NCBI GenBank assembly: GCA_047972845.1
Contig: JBKEBB010000092.1
Span: forward strand, 1-34,772
DNA: 34,772 nucleotides
Source of the DNA: Bacteroidales bacterium
Lineage (GTDB): Bacteria; Bacteroidota; Bacteroidia; Bacteroidales; JBKEBB01
Reading direction: 5' to 3'
The position numbers and the translations under genes are program-made. The notes under the pieces are model-generated. The model was given only the letters and a program-made list of their open reading frames with translations. It had not been told where the DNA came from and made no database searches. Positions within the stretch are counted from its first letter, which is position 1, and the number at the start of each line of letters is the position of its first letter. Shown here piece by piece: positions 14,477 through 29,014 of the stretch.

Positions 14477-15340
14477 ATGGATCAGTTTCGGATCGATCAA
14501 ACCGCTCTTGTCCTTGAAGGGGGCGGTATGCGTGGGGCATTTACAGCCGGTGTTCTCGATCTTTTTATGGATAAGGGTCTCCTTTTCCCCTACTCGATAG
14601 GAGTATCCGGAGGCACAAACAACGGCCTCTCCTATTTTTCGCGACAGCGAGGACGTTCATACTACGCTCACGTCACCTTGATGAAGGAACAACCCTATAT
14701 CGGAATCCGTCCATGGCTGAAGAAAAAGATGGTCATCGACCTGGATCTGCTCTATGAAGAGTTGGTTCACACCCTCTATCCCTACGACTTTGCCGCGGCA
14801 TTTTCCAACCCCGGTCGCTTTGAGGTGGTTGCCACACATTGCATCACCGGAGAGGCTCATTAAGTGGAAGAGCGTGCCGACCCGAAACGGTTGCTCACAA
14901 TCGGCCGCGCCTCTTGCAGCCTACCCATCCTCTCGCCCGAAGTATGGGTGGATGGACAACCTATGACCGATGGAGGACTTGCCGACTCCATTCCCCTAAA
15001 AAGGGCATTCGGGCAAGGATTCTCAAAGGCCGTAGTTGTATTGACTCAAAACGAAGGATTTCGTAAACCACCTTCTAAATTCAAAGTCCCCTCATTCATC
15101 CTCCCCCGCTATCCGAAAGTTCGAGAAATGCTCTACAATCGCCCCGCTCGCTACAATGAGCAATTGGAGTGGGTGGAACAGATGGAGCGCGAAGGAGCGG
15201 TGGATATCATTCGCCCCCTCAAACCTCTTGAGGTGGGTCGATTGACCACCGACTATCGACGACTACAACGGCTCTACGATGAGGGGTACGAAAACGCCCT
15301 GACATGGTATAACAGATACCATCCGGTAAAAGGGGAGTAA
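14477..15340 (+). pseudogene. Patatin-like phospholipase (DUF6363-type C-terminus) interrupted by one in-frame TAA at 14861-14863
   Basis: ORFs 14477..14863 and 14864..15340 are in the same frame; GGGMRG and GVSGG nucleophile elbow precede the stop, the DGG motif follows it; may be a true nonsense allele or a sequencing error. Confidence 0.8.
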
Positions 15341-16095: not shown

Positions 16096-18354
16096 ATGAA
16101 GAAATTCTTTTTTCTCGTTGCAGCGGCAGCATCACTGATGACCATGCCATCATGCGCCCCCGACACCGCGGTGGCCGAAGTGACCGGATTGGCGGCTTTC
16201 GTTGATCCATACATCGGATCAGGGGGTCACGGACACGTGTTTGTAGGGGCTTCCGTTCCTTTTGGAGCCATTCAAGCCGGTCCGCAAAACATCCACAAAG
16301 GATGGGACTGGTGCTCCGGATACCACTATTCGGACAGTATTATCATCGGATTCAGTCACACTCACCTCAGTGGAACAGGTTGTGCCGATCTTGGCGACAT
16401 CCTTATCATGCCCTACTCTGGGGAGATGCGCACAAAACGTGGTACTCAGGAAAACATCGAAGGAGCTGCCTCTTCGTACTACAAACATGAAAACGAACAG
16501 GTATCTCCGGGATACTATTCGTTGCTGATGGACAATGGAGTGAAAGCCGAAATGACCACCACCGAACGTGTGGCCTTGCACCGCATCACCTACTCTGCAG
16601 AAAGCGAAAACCGCCTGTTGATTAATCTCTTGGAAGGCAACGGAGACCGTCCGGTTGAGACCTTCATTCGCAAAGTGGACGAATACACATTCGAGGGATA
16701 CCGCGTCTCTCGCGGATGGAGTCCTCTGCACAAAGTATTCTTTACGCTGGTGACCGACACCCCCGTTGAATCGTTTAATGTGTTTGACAACGACGAGCCC
16801 GCCGAAGGCGCTGAATTAAAAGCAAAAGGGGTAAAAGCAGTTCTCACCTTCAAAAAGGGAGCCAAACAGGTAAAAACGAAAGTGGCCATCTCATCGGTAA
16901 GTACCGAGAACGCCATGGCAAACCTCAAAGCCGAAATGCCCGCGTGGGATTTCAAGAATGTGCAAGCTACAGCCATCAACAAATGGAACGAGCAACTGGC
17001 AAGTGTTACGATCGACACCAAAGATGAGCGTGCCAAACGCATTTTCTACACCGCGATGTTCCACTCATTCATCGCGCCCACTTTGTATTGCGATGTAAAC
17101 GGACAATTCCGCGGAGCCAACGACTCAATCATCACAGCCGACTGGGACAACTATTCTACATTCTCTTTGTGGGATACCTATCGCACACTCAACCCTCTCT
17201 TCACCATCCTCAAAACAGACAAAGTAGCCGACTTCGTAAATTCTAAGTTGTCGATATTCGATCAGCAGGGAAAACTTCCGATCTGGCACCTGCTCGGGGG
17301 AGAAACCAACTGCATGCCCGGTTACAGCGCGATACCCATCATTGCCGATGCATACTTGAAAGGAATCGGTGGTTTTGATCCCGAACGCGCGTTCAACTAC
17401 ATGAAAGCGTCCGCTACCTACGAAAAACAGGTCGGAGTGCCCTACGTGATGGAACGTGGATTTATTCCTGCCGACAAAGTATGGGAGGCTACATCCATTG
17501 CTATGGAATATGCCGTAGGCGACTGGGGTATTGCTCAGATGGCTAAGAAAATGGGAAAGAACGAAGAGTACGACGAATTCCTCAAACGAGGCAAATACTA
17601 CGCGCGTTATTTCGATAAAAGCATCAACTTCATTCGTCCGGTAATGGAAAACGGTAAATTCCTCACTCCGTATGATCCTTTCCAATCGATCCACGGAAAA
17701 GGATATTTCTGCGAAGGAAACGGTTGGCAATATACCTTCTTCGCCCCACAAGATCCGGAGGGATTGATCAGCCTGTTTGGCGGGGACGCTCAATTCACCA
17801 CCAAACTCGATTCGTTCTTTGTTGCTGAAGGCGACATGGGAGCCGAAGCATCAGCCGACATCAGCGGACTGATCGGTATGTACGCGCACGGCAACGAACC
17901 CAGCCACCACATCGCATACCTCTATCCATACGCCGGAGAGCAATGGAAAACAGCGGAGAAGGTTCGTTTTGTGCAGAAAGAGTTCTACACAGACCAACAT
18001 GACGGTATAATCGGAAACGAAGACTGCGGTCAGATGTCGGCATGGCACATCATGTCCGCGCTCGGATTCTATCAAGTGAATCCGTCAAACGGAATCTTTG
18101 TATTTGGTAGCCCTCTCTTCGAGAAAGCGACGATTAATCTCCCCGGAGGAAAGACATTTGTGGTAGAAGCACCCGGTAACTCCGATGAAAACATCTATAT
18201 CCAATCGGCGACACTGAACGGACAACCCTACACCAAATCGTTCATCACCTACAGCGATATCATGAACGGCGGTACTCTCTCCTTTGTAATGGGCAACGCC
18301 CCCAACAAAGAGTTTGGAACGGCCCCCGAGAATCGCCCAAAGACTGAGATATAA
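16096..18354 (+). CDS. Glycoside hydrolase family 92 (alpha-mannosidase), lipoprotein
   Basis: Lipobox-like MPSC; VDPYIGSGGHGHVFVGA, GFSHTHLSGTG, FSLWDTYR, EGNGWQY, HGNEPSHH, GNEDCGQMSAW are GH92 motifs. Confidence 0.95.
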   Translation: MKKFFFLVAAAASLMTMPSCAPDTAVAEVTGLAAFVDPYIGSGGHGHVFVGASVPFGAIQAGPQNIHKGWDWCSGYHYSDSIIIGFSHTHLSGTGCADLGDILIMPYSGEMRTKRGTQENIEGAASSYYKHENEQVSPGYYSLLMDNGVKAEMTTTERVALHRITYSAESENRLLINLLEGNGDRPVETFIRKVDEYTFEGYRVSRGWSPLHKVFFTLVTDTPVESFNVFDNDEPAEGAELKAKGVKAVLTFKKGAKQVKTKVAISSVSTENAMANLKAEMPAWDFKNVQATAINKWNEQLASVTIDTKDERAKRIFYTAMFHSFIAPTLYCDVNGQFRGANDSIITADWDNYSTFSLWDTYRTLNPLFTILKTDKVADFVNSKLSIFDQQGKLPIWHLLGGETNCMPGYSAIPIIADAYLKGIGGFDPERAFNYMKASATYEKQVGVPYVMERGFIPADKVWEATSIAMEYAVGDWGIAQMAKKMGKNEEYDEFLKRGKYYARYFDKSINFIRPVMENGKFLTPYDPFQSIHGKGYFCEGNGWQYTFFAPQDPEGLISLFGGDAQFTTKLDSFFVAEGDMGAEASADISGLIGMYAHGNEPSHHIAYLYPYAGEQWKTAEKVRFVQKEFYTDQHDGIIGNEDCGQMSAWHIMSALGFYQVNPSNGIFVFGSPLFEKATINLPGGKTFVVEAPGNSDENIYIQSATLNGQPYTKSFITYSDIMNGGTLSFVMGNAPNKEFGTAPENRPKTEI

Positions 18355-18389
18355 TAGAAGAGCATAAGCTCATTCTCTGAACAATTATA

Positions 18390-18429
18390 AAGGGACTGTC
18401 CTCCTCGCATGGGACAGTCCCTTCTCTTT
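18390..18429 (+). terminator. Intrinsic terminator after GH92
   Basis: AAGGGACTGTCC...GGACAGTCCCTT 12-bp stem followed by a pyrimidine-rich tract. Confidence 0.75.
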
Positions 18430-18556
18430 ATATACAAATCACTCAGGTCCTAATTTAACGAGATTATCAGCGTTTGATTCATCCCTTATATCTAACACAC
18501 GACAGAACCCACTCTTTGTCCGCTAAGATAACGAGCTCCTATCATTGCAGTTAAGA

Positions 18557-19135
18557 AGACCGGATGCTCTTCTTTATTCACAATTATTCTACCAATAATC
18601 GAACATCGCGTGACAAGAAACTCACCTAGTATCAGAGACACATACAAAATAAACTCTTTATCCTCATAATGAATCGATTGATTATCCCTCTCTAAATTCT
18701 CTAAAAGAGAGTTTAAGGAATCGACACCCTCTGATTTTTGCCCTTTTACTTGCTTTCAATGACGTTTAAGACTATATTCACAGAAACTTTGTGTTCATAC
18801 AATGTTAAAGTTTCGTTGTTAAAAGGAGATGCTATTCACAATTTCGATTTTAGATGCTTTTTATGTCAATACGATTGGATTTAGGAACATTCCACTTCAA
18901 AAAGCGCCCTATTTAACGCATTTTGATAACTCGTGTACTATTTTTTTGATTTTATAAGAACATTATTCGAACCTTACAACCCCACTTGAAACACTTTTCA
19001 TTGTATTAAATTTCTCGACTAAGTTTCAAAACACTACCAACGCCCTCCGATATACATGTCATAGAACATGTTTTGGGTATTAGGTTGTTAGATAAAACCG
19101 TTTTAGATTTGCATGTTCAAAAGAGCATCCGGTCT
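18557..19135. promoter_or_regulatory. Candidate invertible promoter segment bounded by a perfect 15-bp inverted repeat
   Basis: AGACCGGATGCTCTT at 18557-18571 and its reverse complement AAGAGCATCCGGTCT at 19121-19135; TAGATTTG -7 element at 19104-19111 just inside the right repeat, pointing at susC. Confidence 0.6.
19104..19111 (+). promoter_or_regulatory. -7 promoter element TAGATTTG, probable susC/susD promoter
   Basis: Exact TAnnTTTG followed by CA; implies a leader of about 320 nt before ATG 19439. Confidence 0.55.
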
Positions 19136-19173
19136 GTTCATATCAGATAAACAGGGAAAGAAAGGGGTGCCAT

Positions 19174-19195
19174 AAAAAACCGGAATGGAATTCGG
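19174..19195 (-). terminator. Antisense terminator-like hairpin inside the susC leader
   Basis: Minus strand CCGAAT-TCC-ATTCCGG-TTTTTT, imperfect stem with U6. Confidence 0.4.
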
Positions 19196-19438
19196 CATAT
19201 AAAAGATCCCCTACGAATGTTGCGAGACAACATCAGGCCTCCCCACTTAAACGAGGAGTTTTTTTGAGACTTAAGCGTAAAATTATGACTACAAAAGTTT
19301 TAATACATTGTTTAACCACTTAAAACTGAATTGCCTATGGTGAAATGAAGGAAAGATCTATATCTCGTTACATTTTTATCGCTAATAAAATGATTCTTTA
19401 TTTTTTTATAAACAAACTTTGAAAAACAATCAAACAAA

Positions 19439-22400
19439 ATGAATGTAAAATCTTGGAGTAAAGCTTTGACTCTTCTTCTTGTTGCTTCTGTTTGTACATT
19501 TTCTGTAAATGCAGCAGATGCCAACGATGCTGCCATTGCAATGATGCAACAGCAAACGAAGAAAATCAGTGGTACTGTTACAGACAATGCGGGTGAGCCG
19601 ATTATCGGAGCCAACATTGTGCTGAAAAGTAACAGAAGCGTTGGTGCAATCACCGACATCGACGGAAAGTACACACTGGATGTACCTGCCGGCGCAGTTG
19701 TAGTGGTTTCTTATGTAGGTTACACTACTAAAGAAGTTGCTGTAGGTTCTCAAAATGTAGTAAACGTTACCCTCGTTGAAGACAGCGAACAGCTGGATGA
19801 GGTAGTGGTAGTAGGTTATGGTGTTCAGCGTAAGTCTGACGTAACCGGTTCTATCGCCATTGCCGACGCGAAAGACCTTCTTCGTACCCCATCGTTCAGT
19901 GCGATTCAGGGTCTTAAAGGTATCGCTCCCGGTGTAAACGTATTTATCAACTCAGGTATGCCTGGTGGAGGTACTCGCGTTGTTATCCGCGGTCGCTCTT
20001 CAATCCAAGCAGCTGGTGAGCCTCTTTACGTGGTGGACGGAGTAGTAATGGAAGACTTCCAGTTTGTTAACCCGAATGACATCGAGCGTATGGAGGTATT
20101 GAAAGATGCTTCTGCAACTGCTATCTACGGTGCTCGTGGTGCAAACGGCGTGATCATGGTTACTACCAAACGTGGTGGAACTCAAGAAGGAAAAGCGACT
20201 GTTTCTTATAGCGGTTGGGTTTCAGCTTCTATGATGGCTCGCAAAATGAGAACATTGACCGGTGACGAGTGGATGAAAGCCTATCGTATCGGTATGCAGA
20301 ACGCCGAGCGTTTCGGTGGCAAATCTGCTTCTGAATTGAATGCTCGCTGGACAAACATCTCTATGAACAACCCTGCGAATCCTCAGTTCCAACCTCTTTT
20401 CCGCATCGACGGCGCGTTCAATCCTGAAGGATGGAGAAACGCTGACGACAAAAACTTGGTGAACCTGTACAACACAGACTGGCAAAAGGAATCAACTCGT
20501 ACAGCTATTTCTCATAACCACCAGTTGAACATCCAACAAGGTGGTAAAAACTCTTCTGTAGGTGCGTTCTTGAACTATACCGACCAACAAGGTATCGTTA
20601 ACAACACATACATGAAGCGTTTGAACGCTAAATTGACTTACGACGCGAAACCAACGCCTTGGTTGTCAACAGGTATCAACTTGATGGTGAACCACACATG
20701 GCAGCGTGAGACTCAAATTGGATCAGGAGGTATGGACGCTATCCGTATGATTATCGAGATGCCTAGCATCATTCCTGTGAAATATCCTGACGGAGGTTGG
20801 TCATCAACTTCTTCTTCAGTCGGTTCAAGCCGTTCAATCAACGGTTTCGGATTCGAGGCGGCTCCTAACCCTGTTCACTTCCTTGACCAACGTAACTTCA
20901 TGGCCTACCGTACACAAATCTTCGGTAACGCCGCGTTGACTTTCCACTTGATGGATGGTTTGGATCTGAAAACACAATTTGGTGTGGATGCTCAAATGCG
21001 TCGTTGGAGACAACATCAACCATTCGGTTTGGTTAACCAGGACAACGGTGGTAAAGGATATGTTAGCCTTTCATTCGACGACATCCTCTACTGGCAGGAA
21101 GAGACCTTCTTAACTTACAACAAAGCATTTGGCAAACACCGTGTAAACGGAGTATTGGGTCTTTCATGGACTGAGCGTGTAAACCGTAACATGAGTTCAA
21201 ACTCAGGTAACTTCACTACCAACGCGTTTGGTTTTGACAACATTGGTGCAGGTTCTGAACCAGGTACTCCGGGATCAAGCTACGGCCGTTGGGCGATGAA
21301 CTCATACTTCTTCCGTGGAGGTTACACCTACGACGATAAGTATATGGCTACAGTGACTGCTCGTGTGGACGGATCTTCACGATTCGGTGCCAACAACAAA
21401 TACGCGTTGTTCCCATCACTTGGTTTGGGATGGATGATCTCGAACGAAGAGTTCATGAAAGACATTACTTGGATTGACCAGTTGAAACTGCACACCTCGT
21501 ATGGTGTTACCGGTAACTCTGAAATTGGACAATTCAACTCATTGTCAACTTATAGCTTCGGTACTACATTGATCGGTGGCGCACGCGTGCCTTCAGCATC
21601 TCCAACTCGTCTTTCTAACCCTGACTTGAAATGGGAGAAAACTGCGCAGTTTGACGTTGGTTTCAACTTGAACATGTTTAAAAACCGTTTGAATTTTGAC
21701 CTTTCTTACTACTACAAATACACAGACGATTTGTTGTTGAGCGCTCCAATTCCTGCTTCTTCTGGTTACAACTCAATCATGAGAAACATTGGTGCGGTAT
21801 CTAACCAAGGTATTGACGTGATGGTAACATTTGTTCCTGTTCAAACAAAAGATTTCGAATGGAACTCAACTCTGAACTTCAACTACAACTCGAATAAAGT
21901 AGAGAAATTGGCTAACAACAACGCTGACTTAACAACTGACAGCTGGTTGGGTGGTGACGTGATCATGCGCGTAGGCGAACCTTTAGGCTCTATCTACATC
22001 CTTGACCGTGTTGGTATCAAAGGAGAAGCATTTGTTGCTCAGTATGGTGGCCGTGTAGGTACCGCTCTCCGTAACAACAACTTGCCAAGATTAGATGGTG
22101 AAAGCGATGATTCATTCAAAAAACGTACAGGAAAACAGCTTCAAGGACCATCAGTTCCTCCTGTTCAAGGATCATGGATCAACAAATTCTACTACAAAAA
22201 CTTTGACTTGACCATTGACCTTCAATTTACTTTGGGTGGAAAGATCAACCAACGTTACTATCACTCAGGTGAAGACCGTTTCGGTTTGACAGGTGGTTTG
22301 GCTTCAATCTTACTTGACGCATGGAGCCCGGGCAAACCAACAGATGTTCCTAACCAAGTACAAGCAGTTCGTTTGGCCTCTTTCGACGGACAAGATTCAA

Positions 22401-22675
22401 CAATGGATAGCCGTTGGTTGTCAAGCGCTTCTTACCTCCGTGGTAACTTGTTCCAATTGGGTTACAACTTCGACAAAGGGGTTACCAATGCTCTTCGTTT
22501 GAGCGCATTACGTGCCTATGTAAGTGTTGAGAACGCTTTCTCGATCTATTCAAGCAAGTTCCAAGGTTATGATGGTGAGGGTACTACAACAGGTAACGTA
22601 TTCTCTCAAAACCAATCATTCTTCCAATACCCACGTCCTATCGTGTTCACTTTGGGAGCTAACGTAACATTCTAA
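19439..22675 (+). CDS. susC: SusC/RagA family TonB-dependent outer membrane transporter
   Basis: Signal peptide; N-terminal extension ISGTVTDNAGEPIIGANI; LDEVVVVGYG; plug motif EVLKDASATAIYGARGANGVIMVTTK; RVDGSSRFG; LKWEKT; C-terminal F. Confidence 0.97.
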   Translation: MNVKSWSKALTLLLVASVCTFSVNAADANDAAIAMMQQQTKKISGTVTDNAGEPIIGANIVLKSNRSVGAITDIDGKYTLDVPAGAVVVVSYVGYTTKEVAVGSQNVVNVTLVEDSEQLDEVVVVGYGVQRKSDVTGSIAIADAKDLLRTPSFSAIQGLKGIAPGVNVFINSGMPGGGTRVVIRGRSSIQAAGEPLYVVDGVVMEDFQFVNPNDIERMEVLKDASATAIYGARGANGVIMVTTKRGGTQEGKATVSYSGWVSASMMARKMRTLTGDEWMKAYRIGMQNAERFGGKSASELNARWTNISMNNPANPQFQPLFRIDGAFNPEGWRNADDKNLVNLYNTDWQKESTRTAISHNHQLNIQQGGKNSSVGAFLNYTDQQGIVNNTYMKRLNAKLTYDAKPTPWLSTGINLMVNHTWQRETQIGSGGMDAIRMIIEMPSIIPVKYPDGGWSSTSSSVGSSRSINGFGFEAAPNPVHFLDQRNFMAYRTQIFGNAALTFHLMDGLDLKTQFGVDAQMRRWRQHQPFGLVNQDNGGKGYVSLSFDDILYWQEETFLTYNKAFGKHRVNGVLGLSWTERVNRNMSSNSGNFTTNAFGFDNIGAGSEPGTPGSSYGRWAMNSYFFRGGYTYDDKYMATVTARVDGSSRFGANNKYALFPSLGLGWMISNEEFMKDITWIDQLKLHTSYGVTGNSEIGQFNSLSTYSFGTTLIGGARVPSASPTRLSNPDLKWEKTAQFDVGFNLNMFKNRLNFDLSYYYKYTDDLLLSAPIPASSGYNSIMRNIGAVSNQGIDVMVTFVPVQTKDFEWNSTLNFNYNSNKVEKLANNNADLTTDSWLGGDVIMRVGEPLGSIYILDRVGIKGEAFVAQYGGRVGTALRNNNLPRLDGESDDSFKKRTGKQLQGPSVPPVQGSWINKFYYKNFDLTIDLQFTLGGKINQRYYHSGEDRFGLTGGLASILLDAWSPGKPTDVPNQVQAVRLASFDGQDSTMDSRWLSSASYLRGNLFQLGYNFDKGVTNALRLSALRAYVSVENAFSIYSSKFQGYDGEGTTTGNVFSQNQSFFQYPRPIVFTLGANVTF

Positions 22676-22692
22676 ACAATCAAAGCAAGAAA

Positions 22693-24504
22693 ATGAAAAT
22701 GAATAAAATAATTTTAGGATTTGCATGTGTTAGCCTACTGGCTTTCACATCATGTGCCGATTCATTCCTGAAAGAAGAGCCGAAGAGTGAACTTGCAGGC
22801 GCAGGTTTCTTCACTTCAGCTAAGAATGTTCAGGCCTCGGTGAACAACCTGTATCGTTCAGGCGCCAACAGCTGGTACAATACCGGTGTGTACAACGGAT
22901 CAAACCACATGTTCGGAGGTTGGAGAGCCGGTCTGTTCTTGAACAACGAATATGGTGAAATGTCTCACTCATTGTCAAAACCATTGGCTCGCTTGGATCC
23001 TCAATCAAACGCGCACGACAACTGGTTGGCTCCATTGTTTAACGATCCATACATTTATATTCAACGTGCGAACGCGATCATCAAGTTCGTTCCTGACATG
23101 GACCCCAAGACAACCGGTATTACCGATGCTGAGAAAGCTCAATTTGTAGCTGAAGCAAAAGTGCTCCGTGCACAAAACTACATGTGGTTGGTTCGCTACT
23201 TTGGCGATGTACCCTTGGTACTGGAAAACCAATCAGCAGCTGACGACCTCGAAGTTGAAAGAACTTCAAAAGATTTGGTTTGGAAACAGATCATTACTGA
23301 CCTTGAAGAGGCTGTTCCAGGATTTGGTACCCCTAAATCAATGTACGACAACAACATGCGTATCACTGCTACTGTTGCTTCTGCAACTTTGATCGATGCA
23401 TACATGTCTGCAGCCGGTATCACAGGTGACGCTACATTGTACACCAAAGCGGCCGCTGAAGCGAAGAAATTCCTTCCCGGAGGTGCATACGCGGGTATTC
23501 ACGAATTGGAGCAACACACAATCGATGCAACCTTTGACATCGCTGATGTGGACACTACAATCGCTAACTACGTGGTTAACGGTGCTAACATCAACATCTT
23601 CAACCCAGGTGAAGGTAGTGCATACAACAAACTTCGCAACGTGAACGCGGCTGGCCCTACAGCAAGAGGTTACAACAAATGGGCTCCAGAAGCTCAGGCT
23701 GGTCAAGCTCCTAAGTCTTCTAAGGAGTACATCTACGCGATTGAGTTCTTTATCGGTATCAGCAACAATGGTATCAACCAAAGTGCATGGCCAACTACTG
23801 TGGAAGGTTTGGGTTCAGGAGAAACCAAAACAACACTGTTGAACAACTCATATCGTCCGGAGCGTCGTCTGTTGGCTATCTATGACTCAGCTAATGACTT
23901 ACGTGCATGGGAACGTCAGTACTATGCTAACTTCTTCATCAGAAAGAATCTTGATCCGGTTAACAACCCAGAATCAAATACTCCTTCTCCTTACTTCTTC
24001 TATGACTTCCAAGCATTGAAAGAGACTAACTCTTCAGGTCGTCACTGGGCTGTTTATCGCCTTGCTGAAATGTACTTGTTCGCTGCTGAAGCCATTGCTC
24101 AAGCTGAAGGTGTAACTGCTCAAGCTGTTGACGCGTTGGTTGCTGTTAAGAAACGTGCTTACATTACCAAAACTGAAGCTCAAATCCGCGCTTCTATTCC
24201 TTCCGCTAAACAAGCGTTTATTGAAGAGGTATGGCGTGAGCGTTATCGTGAGCTTCCTACTGAGTACAAAGCATGGTGGGATATCCTCCGTACCGGCAAA
24301 TACCCAAAAACAAGAGAGTATAGCCAATACACTCCTGCTGACAACCCAGCAATTGATCGTGGTGACTGTATCTTCGTTGACGCGTCAACTGTTTACAACG
24401 AGGTTCGCGGCGAGTCTGGAAGCAAATACCCATGGGCAGGTAAATCAATGTATCTACCATTCGCTGAATCTGTAATGCAGAAAAACCCAAAACTTAGAAA
24501 CTAA
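22693..24504 (+). CDS. susD: SusD/RagB family surface lipoprotein
   Basis: Lipobox LAFTSC; AEAKVLRA..Y..LVRYFGDVPL, YRLAEMYLFAAEA, ERYRELPTEYKAWWDILR; starts 17 bp after susC. Confidence 0.95.
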   Translation: MKMNKIILGFACVSLLAFTSCADSFLKEEPKSELAGAGFFTSAKNVQASVNNLYRSGANSWYNTGVYNGSNHMFGGWRAGLFLNNEYGEMSHSLSKPLARLDPQSNAHDNWLAPLFNDPYIYIQRANAIIKFVPDMDPKTTGITDAEKAQFVAEAKVLRAQNYMWLVRYFGDVPLVLENQSAADDLEVERTSKDLVWKQIITDLEEAVPGFGTPKSMYDNNMRITATVASATLIDAYMSAAGITGDATLYTKAAAEAKKFLPGGAYAGIHELEQHTIDATFDIADVDTTIANYVVNGANINIFNPGEGSAYNKLRNVNAAGPTARGYNKWAPEAQAGQAPKSSKEYIYAIEFFIGISNNGINQSAWPTTVEGLGSGETKTTLLNNSYRPERRLLAIYDSANDLRAWERQYYANFFIRKNLDPVNNPESNTPSPYFFYDFQALKETNSSGRHWAVYRLAEMYLFAAEAIAQAEGVTAQAVDALVAVKKRAYITKTEAQIRASIPSAKQAFIEEVWRERYRELPTEYKAWWDILRTGKYPKTREYSQYTPADNPAIDRGDCIFVDASTVYNEVRGESGSKYPWAGKSMYLPFAESVMQKNPKLRN

Positions 24505-24529
24505 TTTTCGGTTCTGCTGAAATGAATAG

Positions 24530-24572
24530 GAGAGGCTGTCTAACAATGTTAGGCAGCCTCTCTGCCTTTTTA
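24530..24572 (+). terminator. Terminator after susD (GAGGCTG...CAGCCTC hairpin family)
   Basis: GAGAGGCTGTCTAACA-A-TGTTAGGCAGCCTCTC stem with a T-run shortly after. Confidence 0.8.
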
Positions 24573-24962
24573 TTTATATGATACGATGCAACAAAATATG
24601 AAAAAATTGATTCCTAAATTCGTTGAATGTCTGTATGAAATATTGACGGGAGTAAACATGCCAATGCTATCTAATATAATCCACACGAGATTCGAATAAT
24701 CTGACATAGATTGTAGAATTAACAAACAAGATGAAACAACCAAATGATTGAGGAAATACTGAAAAAAACAAAACAGAAATGATCTCACACAACAAGCACT
24801 CGTAACCTGCTCATCGCCAAATAAAGTAATATATGGAAGATCATTGAGGTTGATTTAAATGAAGTGACAGAAAGTTGAACCAGAAAGCGATAAATCGGCC
24901 ATTTCACGTAATGGCTTTGTAATTATTAACACGCTGACTCCTTTTATTTACTGAACTATATC

Positions 24963-24970
24963 TATATTTG
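24963..24970 (+). promoter_or_regulatory. -7 promoter element TATATTTG for the oxidoreductase operon
   Basis: Exact TAnnTTTG about 150 bp before ATG 25119. Confidence 0.5.
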
Positions 24971-25118
24971 TTGCGAGGAAAAAGTGGATGTTTCGAAAAT
25001 CCACTGAAATTGCCGAAAGAAGAGGAAAATAGAGAGGATGTGATGAAAAATAATATCTGACTCTTGCTTCTCAAAGAGAACAATAACCACTGACACTTTA
25101 ACAATTAAATATAATATC

Positions 25119-26597
25119 ATGTCAGAGTCAATTTCAAGAAGATCATTTCTGCGCAGAGGTGCCTTGGCTGCCGCAGGTATCACAATAGCACCCAGTGCTA
25201 TTTTGGGAAAACAGTGGGGACATACCGCTCCGACTGACAAATTGAATATTGCCGGAATAGGTGTCGGCGGAATGGGCTTCGGTAACCTGAAAAACATGGA
25301 AACCGAAAATATTGTTGCTCTTTGTGACGTAGATTTCGACTATGCAAAAAAAGCATTCGATCGTTATCCCAATGCTAAACGCTACTGGGACTATCGCAAG
25401 ATGTGGGACGAAATGGGAAAAGGAAGCATCGATGCTGTAATGGTGGCAACAGCTGACCATACACATGCCATATCGTGTGCAGAGGCAATGACCATGGGAA
25501 TACATGCGTACGTTCAAAAGCCATTAACCCACACTGTATATGAATCAAGACTTCTGACCAAATTAGCCGATAAGCATAAGGTTGCAACTCAGATGGGTAA
25601 CCAAGGATCTTCAGGAGAAGGTGTTCGCTTGATCTGCGACTGGATCTGGAATGGTGAAATTGGAGAAGTAACGAAAGTAGAAGCCTTTACCGATCGCCCG
25701 TTATGGCCTCAAGGTCTTTCTCTACCTGATCCCAAAGGTGCAAAACCAAAGAAAAACTTTAATTGGGATCTCTTCCTAGGTCCTTGCCAACAAAAAGATT
25801 ACAATCCCGTTTACCATCCTTGGAACTGGCGTGGCTGGTGGGACTTTGGGACCGGTGCCCTTGGAGATATGGCTTGCCACATCCTTCATCCGGTTTTCAA
25901 AGGATTAAAACTTGGATATCCAACAAAAGTACAGGGAAGCTCAACCTTACTGCTTGCTGACTGCGCTCCGCATGCCCAGACCGTAAAATTGACATTCCCA
26001 CAAAGAGATAACATGCCGAAGGTTTCTATGCCTGAGGTGGAAGTATTCTGGTATGACGGAGGATTGAAACCTCCCCGCCCAGAAGGAGTTCCTGTAGGAA
26101 AAAATCTAAACGATGATGGCGGTTGCGTTATATTCCACGGAACAAAAGATACATTGATCTGCGGTTGCTACGGTGTCCGTCCTTGGTTAGTATCAGGTCG
26201 CATACCCAACGCTCCTAAAACACAACGAGAAATTACCGTATCACACGAACAGGATTGGATCCGTGCATGTAAAGAATCTCCGGCAAGCCGCGTAAAAACA
26301 GCCTCTGACTTCTCTGAAGCAGGACCATTCAACGAAATGGTTGTGATGGGAGTATTGGCAGTACGCTTGCAAGCACTAAACCGTATCCTATATTGGGATG
26401 GACCGAAAATGGAGTTCACAAACATCAGCGATAACGACGTAATGCGTTTCGTGTTAGACGATGGCTTGAAGGTGGTTGACGGACATCCGACCTATAACAA
26501 GAAATACACACAACCAGTATCAGCTAAAGAATTCGCTCGCGAACTGATTTGTCACAAATACCGTGACGGTTTCCGTTTGCCAGAAATGCCTAAATAA
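25119..26597 (+). CDS. Tat-exported Gfo/Idh/MocA family oxidoreductase, paralog 1
   Basis: Twin-arginine SRRSFLRR signal; Rossmann IGVGGMG; QKPL; GALGDMACH. Confidence 0.93.
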   Translation: MSESISRRSFLRRGALAAAGITIAPSAILGKQWGHTAPTDKLNIAGIGVGGMGFGNLKNMETENIVALCDVDFDYAKKAFDRYPNAKRYWDYRKMWDEMGKGSIDAVMVATADHTHAISCAEAMTMGIHAYVQKPLTHTVYESRLLTKLADKHKVATQMGNQGSSGEGVRLICDWIWNGEIGEVTKVEAFTDRPLWPQGLSLPDPKGAKPKKNFNWDLFLGPCQQKDYNPVYHPWNWRGWWDFGTGALGDMACHILHPVFKGLKLGYPTKVQGSSTLLLADCAPHAQTVKLTFPQRDNMPKVSMPEVEVFWYDGGLKPPRPEGVPVGKNLNDDGGCVIFHGTKDTLICGCYGVRPWLVSGRIPNAPKTQREITVSHEQDWIRACKESPASRVKTASDFSEAGPFNEMVVMGVLAVRLQALNRILYWDGPKMEFTNISDNDVMRFVLDDGLKVVDGHPTYNKKYTQPVSAKEFARELICHKYRDGFRLPEMPK

Positions 26598-26631
26598 TTT
26601 TTTCATTCACTCTTAATTAAAAACTTATATC

Positions 26632-28110
26632 ATGTCTGAATCTATTTCAAGAAGAGATTTCTTGCGCAGAGGTGCTATTGCAGCAGCAGGAATAACTGTT
26701 GCCCCAAGCACAATTTTGGGTAAAAAGTGGGGACACACCGCTCCTACTGACAAACTGAATATCGCCGGTATTGGTGTCGGAGGTATGGGTAACTCTAACC
26801 TTACCCAGATGAGAACCGAGAACATTGTTGCACTTTGCGACGTGGACTGGAAATATTCTGCAAAGGTGTTTGAAAGATATCCTGATGCTAAGAAATATTG
26901 GGATTATCGTAAGTTGTTCGACGAAATGGGTAAATCAATTGACGCCATCATGTGTGCGACAGCTGACCATACTCACGCCATCATCACTGCTGATGCCATT
27001 ACAATGGGCAAACACGCCTATACTCAAAAGCCTTTGACTCACTCGGTATATGAGTCTCGACTTTTAACAAAATTGGCTGACAAGTATCAAGTAGCTACTC
27101 AAATGGGTAACCAAGGATCATCTGGCGAAGGCGTTCGCAAGATCTGCGATTGGATCTGGACTGGTGAGATTGGAGAAATCAAGAAAGTTGAAGCTGCTAC
27201 AAACCGTCCTATTTGGCCACAAGGTTTGATGACTCCCGCTAAAGGTGACTGGGTTCCCGAAACATTGAACTGGGATCTATTTACTGGTCCGGCTAACATG
27301 CGTCCATACAACGAAGTATATCACCCATGGAACTGGCGCGGTTGGTGGGATTATGGTACAGGTGCTTTGGGTGATATGGCTTGCCACATCCTGCATCCAG
27401 TATTTAAAGCGTTGAAATTGGGATACCCAACAAAAGCTCAAGGTTCTTCAACTATGTTGCTACGTGACTGTGCTCCTCAAGCTCAACGCGTGAAATTGAC
27501 TTTCCCAGCTCGTCCAAAACATGGCAAATTGAACATGCCTGAGGTTGAGGTTTATTGGTATGACGGAGGTATGATGCCTGACCGTCCAGCAGGTTACCCT
27601 GATGGAAAACCTTTGATGCTCGAAGGTGGTGGTTTGGTTATTTTCCACGGAACAAAAGACACTCTTCTTTGCGGTTGCTATGGACAAAATCCTTGGTTAT
27701 TGTCAGGTCGTGTACCTACTAATGTTCCTAAAACTCAACGTGAAATTACAGTATCACACGAACAAGACTGGATCCGTGCTTGTAAAGAGCCTGCTGCTAC
27801 TCGCGTGAAAACAGCGTCTGACTTCTCTGAAGCAGTACCATTCAACGAAATGGTTGTGATGGGTGTATTGGCCGTTCGTCTGCAAGAATTGAACAAAGAG
27901 TTACTTTGGGATGGTCAAAACATGCGCTTTACCAACATTACTGATGACGACAAACTCAGAATCATCATTAAAGACGGATTTAGTGTGAAAGACGGACATC
28001 CTTCATTTAACAAAGAAATGACAGATCCTATCAATGCTAAGGCATTTGCTGAAGGATTGATCAAGCACAACTATCGCCAAGGCTGGAAATTGGTTGATAT
28101 GCCTAAATAA
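26632..28110 (+). CDS. Tat-exported Gfo/Idh/MocA family oxidoreductase, paralog 2
   Basis: SRRDFLRR signal; same motifs and same 492-aa length as paralog 1. Confidence 0.93.
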   Translation: MSESISRRDFLRRGAIAAAGITVAPSTILGKKWGHTAPTDKLNIAGIGVGGMGNSNLTQMRTENIVALCDVDWKYSAKVFERYPDAKKYWDYRKLFDEMGKSIDAIMCATADHTHAIITADAITMGKHAYTQKPLTHSVYESRLLTKLADKYQVATQMGNQGSSGEGVRKICDWIWTGEIGEIKKVEAATNRPIWPQGLMTPAKGDWVPETLNWDLFTGPANMRPYNEVYHPWNWRGWWDYGTGALGDMACHILHPVFKALKLGYPTKAQGSSTMLLRDCAPQAQRVKLTFPARPKHGKLNMPEVEVYWYDGGMMPDRPAGYPDGKPLMLEGGGLVIFHGTKDTLLCGCYGQNPWLLSGRVPTNVPKTQREITVSHEQDWIRACKEPAATRVKTASDFSEAVPFNEMVVMGVLAVRLQELNKELLWDGQNMRFTNITDDDKLRIIIKDGFSVKDGHPSFNKEMTDPINAKAFAEGLIKHNYRQGWKLVDMPK

Positions 28111-28144
28111 TAGGATTGAAATTAATACTTATAATTGAACAAAA

Positions 28145-28182
28145 CAAAGCTCCACGCCTTCGTATGAAGGTGAGGGGCTTTG
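28145..28182 (+). other. Intercistronic stem-loop (mRNA stability element or partial terminator)
   Basis: CAAAGCTCC-ACGCCTTC-GTAT-GAAGGTG-A-GGGGCTTTG long hairpin between oxidoreductase 2 and the DUF1080 gene. Confidence 0.5.
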
Positions 28183-28234
28183 GTGTTTCAAAACTAAAAT
28201 CGAATTATTTACTAATCTCATAGTTGTAAACAGT

Positions 28235-29014
28235 ATGAAAAAAATGTTCTACATGGTCGCAACAGTAGCAATGGCGACTCTAATGTCAGCTTGTGGCGGT
28301 GGCCAAAAACCAAGTGAAACGGCTGCACCTGAAACAAAGGCAGAAGATGAAAACGTAATTGTTTTATTCGATGGCACAACATTCAATGGATGGAGAGGAT
28401 ACAATCGTCAGGATGTTCCTGCTCGTTGGACCATTGAAGATGGAGCTATCAAGTTCAACGGAACTGGTAAAGGAGAAGGACAAAACACAGATGGTGGAGA
28501 CCTCATCTTTGATCGTAAATTCAAAAACTTTGAACTGGAACTCGAATGGAAAGTATCAAAAGGAGGTAACTCTGGTATTTTCTATCTTGCTCAAGAGGTG
28601 CCCGATAAGCCTATCTACATCTCAGCTCCTGAATGTCAAGTATTGGATAATGAGAACCACCCAGATGCTAAACTTGGTAAAGATGGAAACCGTATGTCAT
28701 CTTCATTGTACGACATGATTCCTGCTAAACCACAAAACGCAAAGCCTTTCGGTGAGTGGAATAAAGTGAAAATCTTGTGTTACAAAGGAACAATTGTACA
28801 CTATCAAAATGACGAACCAGTTGTTGAGTACCACTTGTGGACCGATCAATGGAAAGAAATGCTAGATAAGAGCAAATTCAGCAAAGAAAAATGGCCAGAA
28901 GCATACGAACTATTACTTAACTGCGGTGGTGAAAACCAAGAAGGATACATTGGCTTCCAAGACCACGGTGACGATGTATGGTTCCGCAACATTAAGGTAA
29001 AGATTCTTGAGTAA
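28235..29014 (+). CDS. DUF1080 / 3-keto-disaccharide hydrolase family lipoprotein
   Basis: Lipobox LMSAC; LFDG..FNGWRG, NFELELEWK, GGNSGIFY, ECQVLDN, GEWN, GYIGFQDHG..VWFRNIK. Confidence 0.92.
   Translation: MKKMFYMVATVAMATLMSACGGGQKPSETAAPETKAEDENVIVLFDGTTFNGWRGYNRQDVPARWTIEDGAIKFNGTGKGEGQNTDGGDLIFDRKFKNFELELEWKVSKGGNSGIFYLAQEVPDKPIYISAPECQVLDNENHPDAKLGKDGNRMSSSLYDMIPAKPQNAKPFGEWNKVKILCYKGTIVHYQNDEPVVEYHLWTDQWKEMLDKSKFSKEKWPEAYELLLNCGGENQEGYIGFQDHGDDVWFRNIKVKILE

Follow-up and report, generated by a model that had tools for sequence, protein, structure and literature searches.

A candidate invertible promoter between a GH92 gene and a susC/susD pair in a Bacteroidales genome from outside the gut

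The intergenic region between a GH92 glycoside hydrolase gene and a susC/susD pair in a Bacteroidales genome contains a 579-bp segment that is bounded by a perfect 15-bp inverted repeat and that carries, just inside one of the two arms and facing susC, the sole match of the whole region to the -7 promoter motif of Bacteroidota. The locus has the cis anatomy of invertible promoters; it fits neither the arrangement with an adjacent recombinase nor that of the master invertases. An initial annotation, made from the sequence alone, had proposed that the segment is a phase-variable promoter assembled in its ON orientation. The anatomical part of that proposal gained support, namely from the sole promoter box, from a terminator upstream and from a dyad at the left arm, and the part that calls for two orientations did not, with none of five assemblies (0/5) being inverted. 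Our reading of the segment as a real, ON-biased invertible promoter for susC/susD is accordingly a tentative one, held with appreciable doubt, and in what follows we set out the evidence for it together with the alternatives that have to be weighed.

Genomic context

The window, by which we mean the whole stretch of 34,772 nucleotides that was analysed, is the entire contig C13 of an assembly of 2.99 Mb in 392 contigs that is 94% complete. Its genome is the sole member of its family among the species representatives searched, and the 60 relatives used for comparison come from other families of the same order. Near-identical DNA is found in the sequencing runs of 14 studies. The runs with the stretch are recorded as wastewater, sludge, groundwater, drinking-water, bioreactor, digester and compost, and none as gut; RNA runs (X12 and X15-X20) contain part of the stretch.

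The GH92 gene (16096-18354, + strand; Pfam Glyco_hydro_92 with E = 1.5e-172, and Glyco_hydro_92N) is followed on the same strand by an intrinsic terminator, a hairpin of 13 pairs with a T-rich tail at 18390-18423. Where this hairpin differs from the window, in the related metagenomic contig L026 and in run X4, the changes lie in the loop and the stem is spared. Since GH92 ends in its own terminator, susC needs a promoter of its own. The susC gene (19439-22675, + strand) encodes a TonB-dependent transporter of 1078 aa with the Pfam domains Plug, TonB_dep_Rec_b-barrel and CarbopepD_reg_2; its score against TIGR04056, 821 bits, is over the cut-off, as is that of eight SusC genes in the genome overall. 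Behind it comes susD (22693-24504, + strand; 603 aa, SusD_RagB and SusD-like_3). Among the 20 larger ORFs scanned in the window, no hybrid two-component, ECF-sigma or SusR-type regulator was found.

Downstream of susD lie two GFO/IDH/MocA oxidoreductases and a protein with a 3-keto-disaccharide-hydrolase domain, which complete a cluster that runs from GH92 through SusC/SusD (16096-29014). The susC orthologue at another locus, L027, sits among GH38 mannosidases and hints at a mannoside substrate for the cluster. Between susD and the first GFO/IDH/MocA gene there are 614 bp (24505-25118) with no ORF of at least 80 aa on the + strand, and a second promoter, or a regulatory region, may lie here within the cluster. 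On the other side of GH92, a patatin-like phospholipase gene (14477-15340) consists of two ORFs in one frame, split by an in-frame TAA at 14861-14863, and is either a pseudogene or the product of an assembly error.

The inverted repeat

The left arm of the repeat, AGACCGGATGCTCTT (18557-18571, + strand), and the right arm, AAGAGCATCCGGTCT (19121-19135, - strand), are exact reverse complements that pair at 15 of 15 positions, as the initial annotation had it, and they enclose an interior of 549 nt (18572-19120) within an element of 579 bp in total. The match between them stops sharply at both ends and has no imperfect extension. When up to two mismatches were allowed, the 15-mer had two matches in the window, which are the two arms only; the same search in shuffled windows (n = 100) gave a mean of 0.09 matches, and not one of the 100 gave two. 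With 8/15 G+C, the arms also stand out from the 1084-bp spacer between GH92 and susC (18355-19438), in which G+C amounts to 35%.

The odds of finding such a repeat by chance depend on where it is sought. Among 20,000 mononucleotide shuffles of the spacer (18355-19438), 26 contained a perfect inverted repeat of at least 15 bp with a gap of at least 50 nt between the arms (p = 0.0013), and a repeat of at least 14 bp with equally G+C-rich arms (8/15) did not appear in any of the 20,000. Genome-wide, we counted 34 maximal perfect inverted repeats of at least 15 bp at a spacing of 50-1500 nt, many of which are repeat families or IS-like elements with internal ORFs; six local-composition shuffles of the genome yielded 2, 4, 0, 5, 4 and 7 such repeats (mean 3.7). 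Given 34 such pairs, the presence of a repeat like this one somewhere in the genome is unremarkable, and its presence in this particular spacer is remarkable. As the genome has eight susC genes, pure chance is a poor explanation, and the 15-bp repeat is very probably not accidental.

A dyad at the left site

The left arm is enclosed by a perfect dyad with two 7-bp arms around 8 bp, AAGAAGA-CCGGATGC-TCTTCTT (18553-18574), which is a candidate core site for a recombinase. Its motif is unique in the genome, in which dyads of the 7-N8-7 type number 386 overall (0.13 per kb). At the right site the 8-bp asymmetric centre CCGGATGC is identical, together with 3-4 bp on each side, and the outer half-arms, CAAAAGA and, on the other strand, GAACAGA, are merely similar to those on the left, with an arm match of 5/7. 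Inverted arms around a shared asymmetric overlap of 6-8 bp are what the core sites of tyrosine recombinases look like, a sequence pattern that we noticed post hoc. The combination of a shared asymmetric centre and loosely kept, purine-rich arms would point to the crossover site of a tyrosine recombinase and not to operators.

The promoter box and the segment interior

The canonical -7 element that had been described as facing susC is present: TAGATTTG, followed by a C, occupies 19104-19111 on the + strand and is separated from the right arm by 9 bp of the interior (19112-19120). The -7 consensus of Bacteroidota is TANNTTTGY (PMC8748976), and the C that follows TAGATTTG fits the Y. No other TAnnTTTG exists on either strand between GH92 and susC (18355-19438), and the motif occurs 20 times in the whole window, both strands together (0.29 per kb per strand). 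The closest TTTG upstream of the box is 28 nt off, which leaves it with no well-spaced -33 element. Its distance to susC, 335 nt, is not odd, since the nearest TAnnTTTG of the other seven susC genes lies 234-871 nt upstream, where there is one within 1.2 kb at all. With a single box in the spacer and a terminator behind GH92, TAGATTTG is the only promoter for susC that can be recognised by motif.

The near-match claimed for the opposite strand was likewise recovered, 7 bp inside the left arm: TAATTGTG (18579-18586, - strand) would face susC after an inversion, has a G for a T in its TTTG core and fails TAnnTTTG. Judged by motif alone, a promoter thus reads out of the segment in one orientation only.

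If transcription begins at the box, the right arm would cover about +1 to +15 of the transcript. The presumed 5' leader of susC (19136-19438, + strand) contains no canonical promoter box, and the fold of the presumed leader (328 nt) is no better than that of shuffled sequences (z = -0.11). A weak hairpin within it, CCTC...GAGG followed by seven T (19238-19266), falls under the thresholds of the terminator scan and could be an attenuator.

The interior of the segment (18572-19120, 549 bp) is single copy and, in keeping with the earlier description as AT-rich and free of long ORFs, has 33% G+C and no reading frame of at least 100 aa, the longest ORF that touches the segment being one of 51 aa. 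We considered a 42-aa ORF in this block as coding and rejected it, as the differences in L026 show no codon-position pattern. An Rfam search of the segment returned nothing at the gathering score, the best result being rivX, whose 16.6 bits fall short of the required 100. The sequence TATTCACA occurs three times in the segment (18575-18585, 18775-18782 and 18833-18843), twice as the 11-mer TATTCACAATT; these copies could be a protein-binding motif or due to chance.

Recombinases and other copies of the repeat

The initial annotation had found no recombinase in the window and had concluded that one would act in trans. The first of these statements agrees with our results: six-frame searches with PF00589 and PF00239 found no place on C13 (34.8 kb), and the scan of the 20 larger ORFs in the window revealed no recombinase. 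The second did not find support, as the genome shows no convincing enzyme and has this repeat at a single locus, unlike the repeats of the master invertases. The recombinase inventory, taken from a 94%-complete genome in 392 contigs and hence from an assembly in which further enzymes may be missing, consists of a XerC-like gene (C340), a XerD-like gene cut by the contig end (C178), two integrase-like genes (C223, 367 aa; C249, 442 aa), a C-terminal fragment (C218) and a large serine recombinase of 489 aa (C143). None of these genes is linked to the site or lies beside a comparable repeat, and the short contigs C218, C223 and C178 hold no inverted repeats of note.

The suggestion that the genome might contain other copies of the 15-mer, or a recombinase neighbouring such a repeat, came to nothing: neither the 15-mer nor its 12-mer core was found elsewhere in the genome. 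At one mismatch the 15-mer has two isolated sites there, and pairs at 3-4 mismatches look like noise. Isolated single sites at up to one mismatch turned up in 73 of 400 further genomes of the order, and an inverted pair of 15-mers close together on one contig was seen in none (0/400). Because the 15-mer is unique in the genome, an enzyme acting in trans would have a single target.

The segment as a whole is no more widespread. There is no copy of it elsewhere in the genome (G000), and the 60 relatives match its coding flanks only. Searches of the 400 genomes of the order returned only AT-rich matches of 20-64 nt, the best with an E-value of 4.8e-5; five of them, on inspection, lie in unrelated and partly coding contexts, and we rejected these matches as copies of the segment and ascribe them to low-complexity similarity. 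The nearest susC orthologues are L025 (55% identity), which lies behind a fragment of a beta-lactamase-fold gene, and L027 (51% identity), which is preceded by a GH38 mannosidase. Neither locus has a recombinase or a comparable repeat, and both are too distant to inform.

Orientation in other assemblies

Inversion among strains, which an active switch would lead one to expect, was not seen. Five assemblies span the region, namely the window, L026 and contigs of the runs X2, X4 and X5, and all five share the same (ON) orientation, as far as contigs tell. A metagenome scan with the SusC protein as query returned 80 loci, with one close contig over the region, L026, which is 97.1% identical to the window and collinear with it; L028 covers only the 3' half of the gene. 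From four runs (X1, X2, X4 and X5), Logan contigs were aligned to 17300-20400. The spanning contigs of X2 (record 9, 34.0 kb), X4 (record 18, 3.0 kb) and X5 (record 25, 13.9 kb, word depth 277) are collinear with the window, and in the alignment as a whole neither of the two joints listed changes strand. Stretches without cover and the short additional pieces of X4, at 18699 and 18969, do not enter this evidence.

None of the 39 aligned pieces of the fourth run, X1, spans the region. One of them, a 2.6-kb contig that comes from the GH92 side, covers just two bases of the left arm and stops at 18558, not after 18571, where the branch point of an inversion would lie. The contigs of this run break at 18558, within the block between the arms and also all along susC, and two strains are present; we considered the breaks as a sign of inversion and, given the two strains and the breaks throughout susC, read them as strain variation. 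This end suggests a variant at 18559, whose partner in the pairing, 19133, is the position changed in L026.

Ten differences from the window inside the segment are common to the four runs and to L026, which means that the dominant strain in each differs from the strain of the window. The evidence on orientation consists of assembled contigs, and since contigs drop minority forms, a switch with a small OFF fraction is compatible with these data.

Sequence divergence around the arms

The repeat pair is conserved in a relative, a point on which the proposal of a switch had been made to depend: L026 keeps 14 of the 15 pairs, 12 of them contiguous. L026 does not differ from the window in the left arm or in the 7 bp outside that arm; the right arm has a T>C change at 19133, and the outer half-site there is not kept.

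Divergence from L026 is uneven along the locus. It amounts to 2.9% at the 3' end of GH92 (18250-18354) and to 5.3% in the terminator region (18355-18449), and reaches 18% in a hypervariable patch just outside the left arm (18450-18549; 18 differences in 100 bp). It is 2.7% across the block that includes most of both arms (18550-19132) and 30% in a second hypervariable patch on the right (19133-19175; 13 differences in 43 bp), which also varies among the runs X1, X2 and X4. In the leader (19176-19438) and in the part of susC compared (19439-20723), it is 0.8% (2 differences in 263 bp) and 1.2%, with 13 of the 16 changes in susC at third codon positions. The block at 18550-19132 is therefore not unusually conserved; it is the short patches outside the arms that are unusually variable. 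In favour of a switch, the limits of the well-kept block agree with the outer ends of the two arms to within a few bases.

Discussion

As an invertible promoter, the segment would be a cassette that carries a promoter between two sites for site-specific recombination. An unlinked tyrosine recombinase would bind the purine-rich arms AAGAAGA, AAGAAGA, CAAAAGA and GAACAGA around the core CCGGATGC, and strand exchange within this 8-bp core would invert the interior. In the ON orientation, the box at 19104-19111 would start transcription at about 19118-19122, and after a leader of about 320 nt the transcript would enter susC/susD. In the inverted orientation, the box would point at the GH92 terminator and only the defective TAATTGTG would face susC, with the OFF state as the predicted outcome. 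Given that all strains seen are ON, such a switch would have to be strongly ON-biased or rarely flipping. A more specific version, in which the locus is an orphan single-site inverton of a non-gut member of the Bacteroidota, served by an unlinked recombinase without any other target, and in which the junction flanks are mutation hot spots, strikes us as a long shot. The enzyme for such an orphan inverton could even be the XerC/XerD-like pair, a housekeeping one, these being the only small Xer-type tyrosine recombinases found.

The alternative that survives best, although we consider it rather unlikely, is a fixed promoter cassette, be it a relic of the terminal repeats of a mobile element or an inverton that has lost its recombinase, in which the box at 19104 simply drives susC. 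The single orientation in 5/5 spanning assemblies, the lack of an invertase candidate and the decaying right arm of L026 are all in its favour, and so is the length of the spacer: the 1084 bp minus the segment leave about 505 bp, to be compared with 438 bp at L027 and 576 bp at L025, which is compatible with an insertion. Elements derived from MITEs or insertion sequences and equipped with outward promoters look similar: non-coding, a few hundred bp long, closed off by perfect inverted repeats and with the promoter close to one of these. The segment, however, has no target-site duplication (its flanks are TTAAGA and GTTCAT) and no second copy in its own genome or in the 400 genomes of the order, and is thus without the marks of a MITE or IS. 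A fixed cassette would also leave the left dyad and the perfect arms unexplained, and arms that are not under selection should decay, which is a weak test at a strain divergence of 3%.

Another way to account for two related sites is repression by DNA looping, with the right 15-mer as an operator over the predicted start and the left one, 564 bp upstream, as an auxiliary operator; this we regard as unlikely. The right arm follows close on the -7 box, the left site has the dyad symmetry seen in many operators, and with no usual regulator among the 20 ORFs scanned some other control would be needed. On the other hand, a conserved asymmetric centre between varying arms would be the reverse of what dimeric operators present, no regulator gene is adjacent, the motif is nowhere else in the genome, and binding does not need an inverted identity as exact as 15/15. 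Finally, that the repeat arose by chance, in an AT-rich promoter region of the ordinary kind, is quite improbable: about 3.7 perfect repeats of at least 15 bp (spacing 50-1500 nt) are expected per genome, very many windows were read, the match breaks off abruptly after 15 bp and no inversion came to light, but the shuffles of this spacer (p = 0.0013, and 0/20,000 with arms this G+C-rich) and the mere eight true susC genes in the genome speak against it, and the coincidence with the sole -7 box, the dyad and the conservation boundaries multiplies the improbability.

The invertible promoter can be set beside several known systems. In Escherichia coli, the fimS switch places a promoter on about 300 bp between short inverted repeats, and FimB and FimE turn it to switch a surface structure ON or OFF. 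The half-sites of its recombinases flank and overlap the repeats, the recombinases are encoded next to the switch, and it has known accessory proteins. Within the order, gut Bacteroides are described as using repeat-flanked invertible promoters for capsules, S-layers, restriction systems and SusC/SusD (PMC12632263). The proven switches of B. thetaiotaomicron have imperfect palindromic flanking repeats of 17-18 nt (bioRxiv 10.1101/521070), and in the examples from gut Bacteroidales considered here, the invertase gene is directly upstream of the switch (PMC8748976; 10.1101/521070).

One group for comparison is that of the gut tyrosine-recombinase switches, namely the S-layer/BT1927-type, restriction-enzyme and lipoprotein switches of B. 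thetaiotaomicron and the Tsr switches of B. fragilis. As described for the gut Bacteroides switches (bioRxiv 10.1101/521070), the segment is non-coding, measures a few hundred bp and is enclosed by inverted repeats, and a near-consensus -7 box inside it faces outward, towards surface or transport genes. In the same descriptions, those switches have an adjacent tyrosine recombinase and both of their orientations were observed by PCR and sequencing, and we see neither of these here; the repeat itself is unrelated to gut Bacteroides repeats, as far as the texts show.

A recombinase far from its site would in itself not be unusual. The invertases Mpi, Tsr0667 and Tsr19 act on distant promoters or gene segments, with 13, 12 and 2 regions, respectively, that share a repeat consensus (PMC4747536). 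Our locus resembles these B. fragilis systems in that the site would be far from the recombinase, and Tsr0667 serves SusC/SusD clusters. It differs from the master invertases in that the repeat is unique in the genome, where theirs is a consensus shared by many sites, and a regulon of such sites is not found. Ordinary promoters flanked by inverted repeats ('IRP') that do not invert are reported as well (PMC11602134); what sets the present repeat apart from these is its length, its improbability in this spacer and its core-site-like symmetry.

These comparisons bear on what the segment would mean. If the switch works, the phase-variable SusC/SusD strategy would extend outside the gut, to a lineage whose sequence occurs in runs recorded as wastewater, sludge and digester. 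Phase-variable SusC/SusD expression is known from Bacteroides of the human gut, in connection with the pressure that phages and the immune system exert. The lineage studied here has a small genome with eight SusC genes and hardly any recombinases, and a working switch would raise the question of which enzyme flips a lone site. If the segment does not flip, an improbable perfect repeat around a consensus promoter is insufficient to call an inverton.

Other repeats in the genome

Our counts of inverted repeats also brought up elements at a distance from the susC locus. A family of hairpins with arms of 16-19 nt, AAAAAGGAATATAC(G/C)TTT, around 48-50 nt is present on at least five contigs (C201, C216, C279, C332 and C373). 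Perfect 18-bp inverted repeats around a non-coding interior of 184 bp are located at C176:3092-3311, on a contig that is crowded with other long inverted repeats. Contigs C82 and C244 end in some of the C176 arm sequences as well, and the C176 repeat is probably a repeated mobile element.
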